Source: an uncultured Bacilli bacterium
Lineage (GTDB): Bacteria; Bacillota_I; Bacilli_A; RFN20; CAG-826
Length of the DNA stretch: 64,000 bases
NCBI GenBank assembly: GCA_934140155.1
Contig: CAKPBC010000001.1
Coordinates: 32,981-96,980, forward strand
Reading direction: 5' to 3'
In this document: positions 16,304-20,833 of the stretch, in pieces
Layout: each line of letters starts with the position of its first letter
How positions within the stretch are numbered: the stretch's first letter is position 1
Made by a program: the position numbers and the translations under genes
The notes under the pieces: generated by a model
Seen by the model: only the letters and a program-made list of their open reading frames with translations
The model's database searches: none
What the model was told of the DNA's origin: nothing

Positions 16304-16717
16304 TTATTCGTCAATTTCAATGCCCATGTTACGAGCTTGACCAGCAACTACTTTCATTGCTGCTTCAACATCGTTACAGTTAAGATCTGGCATTTTGTAT
16401 TCAGCAATCTTTCTTAATTCTTCTTTGCTAACTTTACCAACTTTTGTGGTTTTAGAATTTGCTGAACCTTTCTTAATTCCAGCAGCTTTTAATAACAAAC
16501 CTGCTACTGGTGAAGTTTTGATTACGAAGTCAAACGATTTGTCTTCGTAGGCTGTAATAATAACTGGAACTACTTCGCCTTTGCGGTCAGCTGTTTTTGC
16601 ATTAAAGTCTGTACAGAATTTAGGCATAACAATACCAGCAGTTGCAAGTTTTGGTCCTGGTTTAGCTTCTCCACCAGGTAACTCCAATTTTACTACCTTA
16701 GCGATCTTTTTACTCAC
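16304..16717 (-). CDS. rplK: 50S ribosomal protein L11 (GTG start)
   Basis: 137 aa, (V)SKKIAKVVKLELPGG...; GGAGG RBS 8 nt upstream of the GTG. Confidence 0.93.
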   Translation of the reverse strand: MSKKIAKVVKLELPGGEAKPGPKLATAGIVMPKFCTDFNAKTADRKGEVVPVIITAYEDKSFDFVIKTSPVAGLLLKAAGIKKGSANSKTTKVGKVSKEELRKIAEYKMPDLNCNDVEAAMKVVAGQARNMGIEIDE

Positions 16718-16893
16718 GTGACTTACCTCCTTATAGATTTTTTTGTCCGTGCCGTGGTCATTGGATTAATCGCTTAATCCTTCCACTAAGCATAGCTTAG
16801 AACTAATTAAACTAGCCCTATGCTTGTTTATTATATCTAATCGCATTTTGCAATGCAAGATTTTTTTTAATAACTTGTCTTGAAAGCAATCGA

Positions 16894-18729
16894 GTAGAAA
16901 GTGAAAAGTAAACTTTTCCGCTTCCTCTCACACCACCCTACGTACGGTCTTCCGTATAGGGCGGTTTAAATAAACATTCTATGCTATCGGTTTAAGATAG
17001 TATTCAAGGGGATTTAAAAGTCCTCTTTTCTTTAGTCGCTCATTAGTTATTGGCCTTTGTATAACACACGAATGTGCAATAAATTGATAACCTCTTCTAC
17101 AATAAGTAAGTCCTTTTGCTTGCTCTTCATCAATCCCTAGTTTGACTAATGATGAAACTTGTTTTAAAGGCATTTTCCATTGTTTCCATATAACTACTCT
17201 TATTGCATTTCTTAACCATTCGCCTAAGGAGGTTAATTTGCTCTTCATACTCGATTTACGGTAATAGTTAATCCAACCTCTTAAGACTTCATTTATCTTT
17301 TTAATTCGATAAGTTAGGTCAATACTCCAAGAACGTTTCATTAATTTCTTTAATTTAAAGAATAATCTTTTGAAACTTTCTTGATGAGGCATAGGTTTCC
17401 ATTCGTTTTTATCTTTCCAAAATGAAAATCCTAAGTATTTAAGTTTACTTGGTCTTGTAATATGAGTTTTCTCGGCATTAACTTTTAATTTAAGTTTATT
17501 TTCAATAAAAGTAACAATATTCTTCATTACTCTTTCCGCTGAAAACTTTGTCTTAACAAAGATAACACAATCATCTGCATACCTTGCAAAGTGTAGTTGT
17601 CTTCTTTCTAATTCTTTATCAAGCTCGTTTAAATATATGTTACTTAATAAAGGCGAAAGGTTTCCGCCTTGTGGTGTTCCTATGTTTGTTTCTTCAAAAT
17701 GTCCATTTACCATTACACCGGCTTTTAGATATTTATGTATAATCCACGTGATATCACTATCTTTTGCTACATTATCCACTATTCGGATGAGTTTGTCTTG
17801 TGGTACATTATCAAAGAACTTCTCTAAGTCTAAGTCAATTATCCATTCATAGCCTTGATTGATTACTTCTAATGCTCTATCTATTGCATTCTGACATCTT
17901 CTATTTGGTCTAAAACCATATGAGTATTCACTGAATGTTGGCTCAAATATTGGTGTTAGTTTTTGTACTAGGGCTTGTTGAATTATTCTATCCACTACTG
18001 TTGGTATTCCTAATTTTCTTATTCCACCATTTGGCTTTGGTATTTCCACCCTTTTTACTGGAAGTGGTTGATACTTGCGACTTAAGATTTGATTGATTAA
18101 GTCATTACCGTAGATTTTTAAATATCCTTTTACTTCTTCACAAGTCATTTCATCAATTCCTGATGCGCCTTTATTTCTTATGACTTGTTTATATGCTTCA
18201 TTTAAGTTGTCTTTAGATAAGACTTCTTCAATCAACTTCATAGTTTTGCTTTTCCTCCTTTTCGTTTGTCTACAGATTATCGTTTTAGGCTTATTTTCAT
18301 AAGTTACGCTTATTACTTTTATCCGTTCGGATTATGTAGACACAATTATTTGTACTACGCAAAGGTTTATTTATTCAGTCCTTCACTTTTCAGTTACTAT
18401 GACCTCTGCTGACTTCTTGGAGTAAACCTTTTTCGACTTTGAGTTTTCTCAAATCTCCAAGACCTCACGGGGTAAGCCATATATCTTTCTAGCCTTGAGT
18501 ACTTGATTTACTATCTAACTATTACGGTCGTTTGTGATTTTAGTATGTTTGGCTACTTCATCACTAGTTAATTGCCTTATATCAAGTTTCTATTCGCTAC
18601 CCAGTCTATTTGCTACACTCTTCTTTCATCTCATACCTCACGATAACAGACTTGAGTTTCGCTATGTAGTTATAACGACTTTCCTACTTGGGACTTCCAC
18701 CCTTTAGATATATGACGTGCCCGTCACAC
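16894..18729 (-). mobile_element. Group II intron, bacterial class C (IIC)-like, about 1.84 kb, ORF in domain IV
   Basis: 5' end GUGUG at 18729 on the minus strand, immediately after a terminator hairpin plus U8. About 510 nt of GC-richer structured RNA (domains I-III). An En-less RT/maturase ORF. Domain V at about 16931-16966 with a CGC catalytic triad, 8-bp lower stem, 2-nt AC bulge and 4-bp upper stem. Domain VI hairpin with a bulged A (ggaag-cg-gaaaagu-uu-acuuuuc-A-cuuuc). The 3' boundary is approximate. Confidence 0.75.
16979..18241 (-). CDS. Group II intron-encoded reverse transcriptase/maturase (no endonuclease domain)
   Basis: 420 aa with RT blocks including FARYADDCVIF (YADD) and maturase X motif RGWINYYR. 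Ends without an HNH/En domain. Confidence 0.88.
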   Translation of the reverse strand: MKLIEEVLSKDNLNEAYKQVIRNKGASGIDEMTCEEVKGYLKIYGNDLINQILSRKYQPLPVKRVEIPKPNGGIRKLGIPTVVDRIIQQALVQKLTPIFEPTFSEYSYGFRPNRRCQNAIDRALEVINQGYEWIIDLDLEKFFDNVPQDKLIRIVDNVAKDSDITWIIHKYLKAGVMVNGHFEETNIGTPQGGNLSPLLSNIYLNELDKELERRQLHFARYADDCVIFVKTKFSAERVMKNIVTFIENKLKLKVNAEKTHITRPSKLKYLGFSFWKDKNEWKPMPHQESFKRLFFKLKKLMKRSWSIDLTYRIKKINEVLRGWINYYRKSSMKSKLTSLGEWLRNAIRVVIWKQWKMPLKQVSSLVKLGIDEEQAKGLTYCRRGYQFIAHSCVIQRPITNERLKKRGLLNPLEYYLKPIA

Positions 18730-18730
18730 C

Positions 18731-18766
18731 AAAAAAAAGCCACATTTTTTTAGCGATAATGTGGCC
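18731..18766 (-). terminator. Rho-independent terminator of the lipoprotein gene; group II intron insertion site
   Basis: Minus strand reads ggccacat-tatcgctaaaaaa-atgtggc (7-bp stem) plus U8, directly abutting the intron 5' GUGUG. Confidence 0.7.
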
Positions 18767-18775
18767 TATTTTTTA

Positions 18776-20833
18776 CTAATTGTTTTGGTTATAAACAAGA
18801 GTGTTCATGGTTTTTACGCCATTAACTATGACCGATAATACACAGCCAGTGTAATAATTTTTACCATTCCAGTTGCATAGAGCCATTTCAATGGTGACAG
18901 TTTGATTATTAAACTCATCCAACCATTCATATTGATCGGCATTTGAACAATATAAACGGATTTTTGTATCACCATTTTTAACATACATATTAGAGTACTT
19001 TAGTTGTACAACTTTTTCAAAAGTTCCCTCGAATACATATACTTGTGCTGTAACGTCTTCTGTCGCTTTAATTTTAGCTAAATCCGCTAAAGTTTTGCTA
19101 CTATCAAATGATGCAGTTGAGTAATCATGTTTTCCATATAAATTTGAAACTAATTCACAGTTATCAAGGAAAATTTCGCCAACCGATTTATCTTGAACAA
19201 CTCCTAATTGCGAACGCGTTCCCTTTAATATGACTTCGTTCCCTAAACTAATAGAACTAATAGTTTCTGAAGATGCTGTAATTGCAATTGTGCCACTTTC
19301 ATCAATTAAATAAAATCCCACTTTATTCACTAATGATGGACCAGCAATACCTTTAACAGTTACAATAGAGTTAAGTTCACTATCAATAGCTTCTTTAACT
19401 GTTATAGATTCCGTAACATTTGGTAAAGTAACTGAAACATTAAATGTTTTAACAAATGTCGCATTATTTTCGTAATTAATCTTAACTGTTATCGTAGCAT
19501 TACCTACTTCATTAGTATGAAATGTTAAAGCACCTTCATCTTCGCTAAAATATGCAACTTTTTCATTACTAGAAGAATAACTAATGCTTGCGTTTTCAAA
19601 GCCTAAAAGTGATGAAGAAACGGTTACAGGAACTGCTATTTTTGGATCGCCTGTATATACATCTTCAAATAAGGTTTTAACCTTATAATCATATACGAAT
19701 TGTTCAACATTAGCTTTATCAAAAATAAATCCTTCATCTTTAACAGAAATTGGAATAAATCTCCAAAAACATCCAGATATTGTAGATTTAGCATTGATTG
19801 CTACAACTAAAACTGTACAAATCTTTCCATCAAATTCTTCAAGCCAATTCAAATCACTACCGTTACATTGTGTATAAACATAAGATCCTGTAGTTTCATC
19901 AAGATCATCAATATAATAGTTAACATATCCTTGCTTTTGAGATTTACCTATATATGCGTTTGCTTTAAAAATTTTATTTGTAATATTTTCAGTAACAGGG
20001 GTATCCATAATTTGTTTTATAGTTGTTTCTTCAACCCAGTTTATATCGATATCAGTATTACCTTCATCATTACTAACAATATGTCCTTTGGTTAATTGGC
20101 ATGATCCATTGTAACCATACTTTTCAGCAAAAGGCACTTCGTCTTCTAAAATCCAGTAGTCTTTTGTTGCCGCTAAAGTAATAGAATTGCCTTCTTCTAC
20201 TTTTAATACGGTTGATAAATCGTAAATATAAATAGAAGATGTATTATCAACAAGATAAAAGCCATTTTCTTTCTTTCCTGTCGCATATGTCTTTTTACTT
20301 ACAACACCTGACACTAAAACTTTTTTGCCTTTTTCCGCTTCTCTAGCTTTAGCAATAGTCATTTTTTCATATTCGCTAACATCAAATTGTGTACTACTAT
20401 CGACATAATCAATTAACCATGCGTTTTTTACTTCTGGTTGTCCACTATGAGTTTGAAGAGTAGCATAAATAACAATTTCATCATTTACATCTGGTTTATA
20501 TTCTAAATTTTTGTACTGGACACTTCCATCTTCACTATACGTTCCATAAATATAAATTTTACCAGTTTCGTCTTCAATTTTCATGCTTCCATAATCATAA
20601 TTGGAAACACTAGTAATTTTGCCATAAAGATAATATCTTTCTTGTGTTGGCTCACTAGCTTTAGAAGCAATTTCTAATGCTTCACTTATGTCAATACAGT
20701 TGTAACGTTCTTTCAAACTTGTTGAAGGTTGAGTAGATGCGTCACTGTTAGACGTAGATAATCCTCCTTGATCACAAGCACCAAGTGCTAACAAACAAGA
20801 AACACTTAATAGACAAAATAATTTTTTTCTCAT
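18776..20833 (-). CDS. Large surface lipoprotein with about 4 OB-fold-like repeats and an Ig-like segment; function unknown
   Basis: MRKKLFCLLSVSCLLALGAC lipobox. Repeated blocks of the (V/I)xGxVxxxxxxxxGFYLxDxTGxIxIY type. No recognizable catalytic motif. Confidence 0.5.
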   Translation of the reverse strand: MRKKLFCLLSVSCLLALGACDQGGLSTSNSDASTQPSTSLKERYNCIDISEALEIASKASEPTQERYYLYGKITSVSNYDYGSMKIEDETGKIYIYGTYSEDGSVQYKNLEYKPDVNDEIVIYATLQTHSGQPEVKNAWLIDYVDSSTQFDVSEYEKMTIAKAREAEKGKKVLVSGVVSKKTYATGKKENGFYLVDNTSSIYIYDLSTVLKVEEGNSITLAATKDYWILEDEVPFAEKYGYNGSCQLTKGHIVSNDEGNTDIDINWVEETTIKQIMDTPVTENITNKIFKANAYIGKSQKQGYVNYYIDDLDETTGSYVYTQCNGSDLNWLEEFDGKICTVLVVAINAKSTISGCFWRFIPISVKDEGFIFDKANVEQFVYDYKVKTLFEDVYTGDPKIAVPVTVSSSLLGFENASISYSSSNEKVAYFSEDEGALTFHTNEVGNATITVKINYENNATFVKTFNVSVTLPNVTESITVKEAIDSELNSIVTVKGIAGPSLVNKVGFYLIDESGTIAITASSETISSISLGNEVILKGTRSQLGVVQDKSVGEIFLDNCELVSNLYGKHDYSTASFDSSKTLADLAKIKATEDVTAQVYVFEGTFEKVVQLKYSNMYVKNGDTKIRLYCSNADQYEWLDEFNNQTVTIEMALCNWNGKNYYTGCVLSVIVNGVKTMNTLVYNQNN

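Follow-up and report, generated by a model that had tools for sequence, protein, structure and literature searches.

A complete and probably active group IIC intron inserted behind a lipoprotein-gene terminator upstream of rplK in an uncultured gut member of the Bacilli

We analyzed a 64,000-nucleotide (nt) stretch of contig CAKPBC010000001.1 (positions 32,981 to 96,980; hereafter the window, in whose numbering positions are given unless stated otherwise). The DNA stems from a low-GC member of the Bacilli from the human gut that is as yet uncultured. On its minus strand, between the gene of a predicted lipoprotein and rplK, the window carries an element that we identify with high confidence as a complete and probably active group IIC retroelement, recently inserted in sense orientation behind the terminator of the lipoprotein gene and upstream of the rplK promoter. 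The evidence comes from intron-free alleles of the same locus, from the covariation of the ribozyme domains (D1 to D6), from the intron-encoded protein (IEP), and from the sites that related copies occupy elsewhere. The features are collected in Table 1.

Results

Intron-free alleles fix the ends of the intron

The window was compared with intron-free alleles of the locus. These empty sites (L006-L008 and L010-L015) were human-gut metagenome contigs that encode an identical L11 and in which the gene of the 685-amino-acid (aa) predicted lipoprotein is followed directly by rplK. With the junction marked by a caret, the empty alleles read ...AATGTGGC-T(7-9)-G^TGCTTT(C/T)AAG..., whereas the filled allele of the window reads ...AATGTGGC-T8-G^GTGTGACGG......CTACTCGAT^TGCTTTCAAG...; in short, ...ATGTGGC-T8-G^TGCTTTC stands against ...T8-G^GTGTG...CTCGAT^TGCTTTC. 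This comparison left a single register for the intron ends and defined an intron of 1841 nt running from 18729 to 16889. An earlier note on this stretch had placed the intron at 16894-18766. The intron does lie there, but that span was 5 nt short at the 3′ end and wrongly included the hairpin at the other end. The note had also described the 5′ GUGUG as directly following a U8 tract; the intron is indeed adjacent to the terminator, but a single G (18730) stands between the U8 and the GUGUG.

The hairpin in front of the intron begins 9 nt past the stop codon of the lipoprotein gene. It had been reported as a 7-base-pair (bp) hairpin plus U8. The 7-bp core (GCCACAU/AUGUGGC) and the U8 are present, but the full stem has 10 bp, including one G-U, and closes a loop of 11 nt. 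The hairpin folded with -16.1 kcal/mol (z = -2.7), and the distance from the stem end to the junction was 7 nt for the full 10-bp stem and 9 nt for the core stem. Among the nine empty alleles shown, the stem was nearly invariant and the loop was variable, as expected of a functional terminator. A simple terminator scanner did not flag the hairpin at 18737-18767, because its 11-nt loop exceeded the 8-nt limit of the scanner; the hairpin was accepted through folding and through our own rule for stems and T-runs, which was applied with random-position controls as described below.

All six ribozyme domains are supported by covariation

Next, we analyzed the structure of the intron RNA. Rfam covariance models, used at their curated gathering thresholds, matched the minus strand at 18647-18477 (group-II-D1D4-3, RF02001; 101 bits, E 1.7e-19), at 18440-18378 (group-II-D1D4-1, RF01998) and at 16966-16889 (Intron_gpII, RF00029, which covers D5 and D6). 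Models of D1-D4 and of D5/D6 were both found on the strand to which the intron had been assigned. We then aligned 17 copies of the lineage from GTDB genomes and metagenomes (75-93% identity) over their first ~380 nt. In this alignment, 98.8% of the cells of the D1-D3 consensus structure were paired, and compensatory changes were observed in 36 of the 97 D1-D3 pairs, compared with 16.8 ± 2.2 after column shuffles and 2-8 when the partners were slid by 1-3 columns. Helices 13, 14, 16 and 17, in the region of D2 and D3, showed three to five compensatory pairs each. Helix 15 of the alifold structure (intron 321-325 with 367-371) had zero compensatory support and was rejected as a real helix; it is probably an artefact of ending the alignment before D4.

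The basal helix of D4 was found by inspection and was checked separately from alifold. It brackets the open reading frame (ORF) of the IEP and showed compensatory changes in L018, L033 and L040, as exemplified by UAAAUAAAC/GUUUAUUUA versus UGAACAAAC/GUUUGUUCA. D5 consists of a 9-bp basal stem with a CGC triad, an AC bulge, a 4-bp distal stem and an AAGA loop, and compensatory changes between C-G, G-C and A-U pairs were found among the copies. The triad, C-G-C of CCGCCCUAU, aligned opposite A-G-C of the Rfam consensus and was kept in all 12 of the copies listed. Similarly, D6 showed a compensatory change from A-U to G-C (GGAAG/CUUUC versus GGGAG/CUCUC). Covariation supports each of the six ribozyme domains, none of which is missing, and the element displays the hallmarks of group II introns, namely 5′ GUGUG, 3′ ...GAU, D5, and a D6 with a bulged A as the seventh nucleotide from the 3′ end. 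D1-D3 comprise 353 nt and D5-D6 ~75 nt, and the non-coding part including the D4 arms totals 578 nt.

Class IIC ribozymes are marked by their small size, by CGC in place of AGC in D5 and by a distal D5 stem 2 bp shorter than in IIA and IIB (PMC1702495). Further marks from the same source are AGGAA in the epsilon-prime bulge, a pairing of only 3-4 bp between exon-binding site 1 (EBS1) and intron-binding site 1 (IBS1), an EBS3 as in IIB, and no EBS2. The AGGAA is an epsilon-prime motif specific to IIC (Toor et al. 2006, PMC1702495). In the present lineage, AGGAA at intron 45-49 was invariant in an 8-copy alignment and was retained in 16 of the 17 copies. An EBS2 subdomain was judged to be absent solely from the small D1d arm.

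The intron-encoded protein is a class IIC maturase without an endonuclease domain

A domain search of the IEP returned RVT_1 and GIIM alone, and an HNH or other endonuclease (En) domain was absent. Against the NCBIfam model TIGR04416 (group II intron reverse transcriptase/maturase), the protein scored 421 bits at a cut-off of 300; against retron_St85 it scored 81 bits at a cut-off of 235, and the Drt families were far under their cut-offs. A retron or another non-intron reverse transcriptase (RT) was rejected because the retron and Drt scores were below the cut-offs and ribozyme domains flank the ORF. The closest relative of solved structure was MarathonRT in the E. rectale ribonucleoprotein (RNP) 7UIM (E 2e-141, residues 3-417 of 420), followed by the GsI-IIC RT (2e-107) and by 5HHJ/5HHL, which are RT fragments of R. 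intestinalis and E. rectale (1e-106). Solved IEPs of other classes gave 1e-45 (IIA, LtrA) and 9e-38 (IIB maturase). The four best relatives in the PDB are all group IIC, an identity taken from PMC10190682 and from the chain name GsI-IIC RT. Furthermore, the Cys directly after YADD that is conserved in IIC IEPs (PMC12590461) is present here as YADDC.

The ratio of nonsynonymous to synonymous substitution rates (dN/dS) of the IEP gene was 0.14 against two copies ~90% identical in aa sequence and 0.31 against a 99% copy, where very few changes were available. As judged from these ratios, the IEP is under purifying selection. A promoter scan within the intron found no promoter-like site upstream of the IEP gene, suggesting that IEP expression probably depends on read-through of the terminator. 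The earlier note had read the element as an intact, class C-like intron of compact size, with a CGC triad in D5 and an En-less RT/maturase of 420 aa. Each of these points agrees with the six domains, the IIC marks and the IIC-type IEP found here, and the retron alternative that it had raised did not survive the comparison of scores.

The lineage recognizes terminator-type hairpins and a short IBS1

In IIC introns, a terminator stem-loop occupies the position of IBS2, and the splice sites lie 3-11 nt from the stem (PMC1702495); the targeting of terminators by this class is also described in PMC4424553. We assembled 35 distinct 5′ junctions of the lineage (one from the window, 9 from GTDB loci and 25 from metagenome loci) and applied a strict rule. 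To qualify, a site needed a perfect stem of 6 bp or more, two or more of them G-C, around a loop of 3-13 nt, followed by four or more T among the next 6 nt, with the stem ending no more than 12 nt from the junction. A hairpin and T-run of this kind was found at 28 of the 35 independent sites, with stem-to-junction distances of 4-11 nt, compared with 59 of 5000 random positions (1.2%) in the same loci. The position next to a terminator, which had been expected of further copies, thus recurs throughout the lineage. Most of the seven sites that failed the rule had bulged hairpins by minimum-free-energy folding. The sequences of the hairpins and the neighboring genes were unrelated between sites, indicating that the intron recognizes a motif and not a homing sequence.

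EBS1 lies in the terminal loop of the D1d arm, where an invariant frame encloses a hypervariable tetranucleotide (R-C-NNNN-C-A). In the window, EBS1 CAAA pairs at all four positions with IBS1 UUUG, and C178 is likely the delta nucleotide. By eye, EBS1 and IBS1 matched in half of the first 8 copies; therefore, the sample was enlarged and a permutation test was applied. At the 18 distinct sites where both partners were readable, EBS1 and the 5′-exon ends were paired at 61 of 72 positions. Permuted combinations of sites and introns gave 38.3 ± 3.5 paired positions, and none of the 10,000 permutations reached 61. Matched EBS1/exon sets were CAAA-TTTG, ATAA-TTAT, AACA-TGTT, GAAA-TTTT and AGTA-TATT. 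At the 3′ junction, the first exon base was T at 11 of 12 distinct sites, and A221/A222 in the coordination loop was invariant.

The locus is polymorphic and a near-identical copy occupies a second site

Among the sampled contigs with an identical L11, ~5 were filled and ~17 were empty, so that about three quarters lacked the intron. A full-length copy 99.35% identical to that of the window was found at L035:5519-7359 (minus strand), behind a different hairpin and between convergent genes, with the same junction as in the window (TTTG^TGCT). The polymorphic locus and this near-identical second-site copy indicate that the insertion took place in the very recent past. A 685-aa ORF beside the L035 copy was considered as a paralogue of the 685-aa gene of the window; the two show no similarity, and their equal length is a coincidence.

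A scan of genome contigs detected relatives with 75-96% IEP identity in metagenome-assembled genomes (MAGs) of Bacilli, 'Mollicutes', Candidatus Enterosoma and Enteromonas. One copy, L020 (CAVCDW010000049.1), was binned as 'Elusimicrobiaceae bacterium' and was 96% (IEP) and 92% (intron) identical to the window; all other close relatives were in Bacilli-type MAGs, and the L020 copy reflects either a mis-binned contig or a transfer across phyla. Two MAGs carried remnants at the same hairpin site with differing internal deletions, of intron 79-475 in L024:2899-4326 and of intron 222-660 in L021:2870-4285; both kept most of the IEP gene, and folding of their ribozymes is impossible. At L043:2748-6733 (minus strand), just downstream of a tRNA gene, a 93% copy was split at intron ~116-122 by an insertion of 2.2 kb. 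A nested intron (twintron) was rejected for this insertion, since Rfam detected no second intron in it and its ORFs of 402 and 259 aa look, by eye, like IstA/IstB of IS21-type elements.

In addition, contigs L032, L034, L036, L041, L042, L044-L049, L054 and L056-L058 ended within ~140 nt of the intron's 5′ end, and these make up over half of the 27 metagenome contigs in which that end was found. Such ends are typical of assembly breaks at multi-copy repeats, which suggests that the lineage is multi-copy in many gut communities. A search of viral_contigs for carriage by phages returned zero matches.

Genomic context of the insertion

The 685-aa lipoprotein gene lay between nusG and rplK in every allele seen, so that the usually contiguous secE-nusG-rplK-rplA cluster is interrupted in this species. 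The earlier note had put the intron inside the nusG-rplK cluster; it does lie between these two genes, but the terminator that it follows belongs to the intervening lipoprotein gene. The protein matched no Pfam or NCBIfam family, its sole match being a sub-threshold OB-fold. The intron is on the minus strand together with the flanking genes, which agrees with the sense orientation proposed before, and was inserted 31 nt upstream of the -35 hexamer of rplK. The promoter-like element of rplK fell under the -35 threshold of the scanner; it and the leader were base-for-base the same as in the intron-free alleles L010, L012 and L014.

The rplK leader (16718-16830, minus strand) contains a strong conserved hairpin, AAGCAUAG...CUAUGCUU, which was the same in all alleles. 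It matched no Rfam family even at E<=1. A permissive Rfam search of 16650-18800 likewise returned nothing credible besides the intron and no known leader family upstream of rplK. This hairpin may represent an L1-binding autoregulatory leader outside current models.

Table 1. Features of the group IIC intron and its insertion site (window positions; a caret marks an intron-exon or exon-exon junction)
Feature	Position	Strand	Basis
Complete group IIC intron, 1841 nt, 5′ GUGUG ... CUCGAU 3′	16889..18729	minus	filled/empty comparison and Rfam
Hairpin of the terminator that ends the 685-aa gene upstream; target motif (DNA stem-loop)	18737..18767	minus	fold and strict rule
Target site: hairpin strands GGCCACAUU...AAUGUGGCU, then U8-G^U		minus	read from sequence
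U8 tract of the terminator	18731..18738	minus	read from sequence and empty alleles
IBS1 UUUG (last UUU of U8 plus G18730)	18730-18733	minus	EBS1/IBS1 pairing
IBS3 U, first nt of the 3′ exon	16888	minus	T in 11/12 distinct 3′ junctions of the lineage
Expected ligated-exon junction ...UUUUUUUUG^UGCUUUCAAG	flanks of intron	minus	
Domain I, intron 6-263	18467..18724	minus	alifold helices with compensatory changes, RF02001
AGGAA motif, intron 45-49, 5′ part of domain I	18681..18685	minus	conservation
EBS1 loop GCCAAACA, intron 177-184	18546..18553	minus	invariant frame, hypervariable N4
EBS1 CAAA, C179-A182	18548-18551	minus	pairing with IBS1
Domains II and III with the junction J2/3, intron 264-353 (D2 264-319, D3 326-353)	18377..18466	minus	compensatory pairs, RF01998
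GAAGUCAGCAGAGGUCAUAGUA in the region of domains II-III	18395-18416	minus	
Domain IV basal helix, 5′ strand UAAAUAAAC, intron 357-365	18365..18373	minus	pairs with 16975-16967
Domain IV basal helix, 3′ strand GUUUAUUUA, intron 1755-1763	16967..16975	minus	
Domain V, 32 nt, intron 1766-1797	16933..16964	minus	Rfam alignment, fold, compensatory changes
Domain VI, intron 1801-1838, bulged branch-point A at intron 1835 (window 16895)	16892..16929	minus	fold, compensatory changes
IEP, 420 aa: RT (YADD then C), X/thumb and DNA-binding domains	16979..18241	minus	ORF and domain search
Shine-Dalgarno AAGGAGG of the IEP gene	18254-18260	minus	
685-aa predicted lipoprotein gene, between nusG and rplK	18776-20833	minus	ORF and signal peptide ending ...LALGAC
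Host rplK promoter-like element TTGCAT-17 nt-TATAAT, outside the intron, downstream of the insertion	16830..16858	minus	read from sequence

Discussion

A proposed route of insertion and the points against it

For relatives of the window intron, recognition of a DNA stem-loop together with EBS1/EBS3 contacts and priming on the lagging strand have been described (PMC10190682), and IIC RNPs are thought to invade the lagging-strand template, with nascent lagging-strand DNA as the primer (PMC4424553, PMC10190682). The steps proposed here were shown for such relatives and are carried over to the window intron. Occasional read-through of the terminator would transcribe the intron, after which the 420-aa maturase/RT would bind the intron RNA and promote its splicing, yielding an RNP. 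The RNP would then read single-stranded DNA that contains a terminator-type stem-loop and, a few nt further on, the 4-nt IBS1 (through EBS1 CAAA) and a T (IBS3), and the intron RNA would reverse-splice into the recognized site. Since the IEP has no endonuclease, cDNA synthesis would be primed by nascent DNA at the replication fork. With a terminator before it and the next promoter after it, the intron interrupts neither a gene nor a promoter, and its effect on the host is therefore probably near neutral.

Several observations weigh against this interpretation. The distal stem of D5 (ACGG/CCGU) has 4 bp, which is 1 bp below the IIA/IIB (34-nt) consensus, whereas the IIC stem of the literature is 2 bp shorter. 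EBS1/IBS1 pairing was imperfect at 8 of the 18 sites, where 1-3 of the 4 positions were paired. The placement of EBS3 at A221/A222 follows by analogy with A231 of the E. rectale intron; the T that begins the 3′ exon is consistent with it. The GC skew of the plus strand was negative throughout the 64-kb window, so that the sense strand of the intron is G-rich and presumably leading-strand sequence, that is, the lagging-strand template; insertion into that template, as in the proposed route, is consistent with this skew, but the skew covers 64 kb only. Moreover, the 64-kb window holds one copy, and every contig with the exact IEP carries the intron at this one locus. The activity of the window copy is itself a probable one, judged from its intact ORF and ribozyme, the selection on its IEP and the polymorphism of its locus.

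Alternative explanations

One alternative is a IIC intron whose copy in the window is an immobile relic, passively carried and no longer splicing or moving. The exact IEP was seen as a single copy and always at the same locus, and some relatives have decayed: L021 and L024 carry internal deletions, and L043 is split by an IS21-type insertion. However, the ORF is uninterrupted, YADD is intact, and the protein matches an active IIC maturase from end to end; its dN/dS of 0.14-0.31, the presence of six domains, the branch-point A and a perfect 4-bp EBS1/IBS1 pairing are likewise hard to reconcile with decay, and the polymorphic site and the 99.35% copy at a second site point to very recent movement. 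We therefore regard a relic as unlikely. That the element belongs instead to a different En-less class of group II introns (D, E, F or CL-type IIB) and stands behind a terminator by chance is extremely improbable. Classes D, E and F are also without En (PMC4424553) and have no solved IEP structures for comparison, and canonical IIC introns have a shorter distal D5 stem than the window intron. On the other side, the window intron bears three IIC marks, namely the CGC triad, AGGAA and an EBS1 of 4 bp (PMC1702495), a stem-loop stands at the IBS2 position in 28 of the 35 sites, the EBS1 loop has the same layout as in the E. rectale IIC intron, and the top IEP matches are all IIC, with E-values ~100 orders of magnitude better than those of IIA and IIB.

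The earlier note had further suggested that the intron may modulate expression of the L11/L1 operon. Such a co-option, in which read-through into rplK-rplA was made splicing-dependent or the operon was insulated from upstream transcription, has some appeal in that the intron lies in sense orientation 31 nt upstream of the rplK -35 hexamer and would be contained in read-through transcripts of the lipoprotein gene. Nevertheless, terminator, promoter and leader are all retained, and the downstream sequence is the same as in L010, L012 and L014. Most of the sampled identical-L11 contigs are without the intron, indicating that it is dispensable, and its relatives stand behind unrelated terminators beside unrelated genes, indicating that the position reflects target choice and not function. 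Modulation is thus highly improbable, and the idea is unsupported, as nothing speaks for a host function or a regulatory role at L11/L1. Very unlikely, too, is the wider proposition that the insertion, placed between a leaky terminator and the rplK promoter, is non-neutral, either because L11/L1 read-through became dependent on splicing or because the intron added an outward signal of its own; if true, expression of a ribosomal-protein operon would set filled strains of this gut species apart from empty ones. A weaker variant, counted within the same small chance, would have the hypervariable EBS1 reflect a lineage that rapidly re-tunes to each terminator tail after insertion. Taken together, we prefer an ordinary IIC intron of textbook behavior that is apparently harmless to its host.

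Significance

The targeting of terminator stem-loops by IIC introns has been on record since 2006-2007, with a structural view following in 2022, and the present intron has little importance beyond annotation. Still, the natural filled/empty polymorphism, together with the near-identical copy at a second site, is clean evidence, obtained in situ, that IIC introns continue to move in uncultured Bacilli of the gut, and the set of 35 sites documents that in nature EBS1 and IBS1 covary and the spacing follows a 4-11 nt rule. As a new relative of MarathonRT at moderate divergence, the IEP could appeal to those who collect processive RTs. In genome annotation, the 1.84 kb in front of rplK should be treated as a mobile element rather than as a leader of the ribosomal operon.

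Comparison with known group IIC introns

As far as its sequence tells, the window intron works like B.h.I1, O.i.I1, Ta.it.I1 and the E. rectale intron and shows the features that define them, with the 4-bp distal D5 stem and the EBS3 assigned by analogy as caveats. O.i.I1 of Oceanobacillus iheyensis and Ta.it.I1 of Thermoanaerobacter italicus combine compact IIC ribozymes with En-less IEPs, as found here; the similarity of ribozyme sequence to O.i.I1 is one that we presume. The mobility substrate of Ta.it.I1 is a stem-loop followed by TTTTTTAT (PMC12590461), and the same junction occurs in the relatives L019, L021, L037 and L038. IIC-attC introns such as S.ma.I2 belong to the same class and also recognize a DNA stem-loop, but their targets are the attC sites of integrons. 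None of the 35 sites resembled an integron context, which was not specifically examined, and all had terminator-like T-runs.

B.h.I1 of Bacillus halodurans inserts after intrinsic terminators with its splice sites 3-11 nt away (Toor et al. 2006, PMC1702495; Robart et al. 2007). Like the window intron, it has CGC in D5, AGGAA, a 3-4 bp EBS1-IBS1 pairing, no EBS2 and an IEP without En. Both have neighbors from the translation apparatus, B.h.I1 standing after rrn operons and the window intron before the L11 operon. In contrast, B.h.I1 occurs as five near-identical copies in one genome, whereas the window genome has one documented copy, and the distal D5 stem has 4 bp here compared with the 3 bp implied for typical IIC introns.

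The E. rectale IIC intron with MarathonRT (7UIM/7UIN; Chung et al. 2022, PMC10190682) comes from a Lachnospiraceae host, whereas the present element comes from an uncultured low-GC member of the Bacilli. The two represent separate lineages with clearly diverged proteins, and EBS1 is AAAG there but CAAA here. Nevertheless, the IEPs share the same architecture of RT, thumb and DNA-binding domains without En. EBS3 of the E. rectale intron is likewise an A in the coordination loop of D1, and its DNA target is also a stem-loop followed by a short spacer, a 4-nt IBS1 and a T. Furthermore, the layout of its EBS1 loop, with C183 as delta, A184-G187 as EBS1 and then A188, equals that of the window intron.

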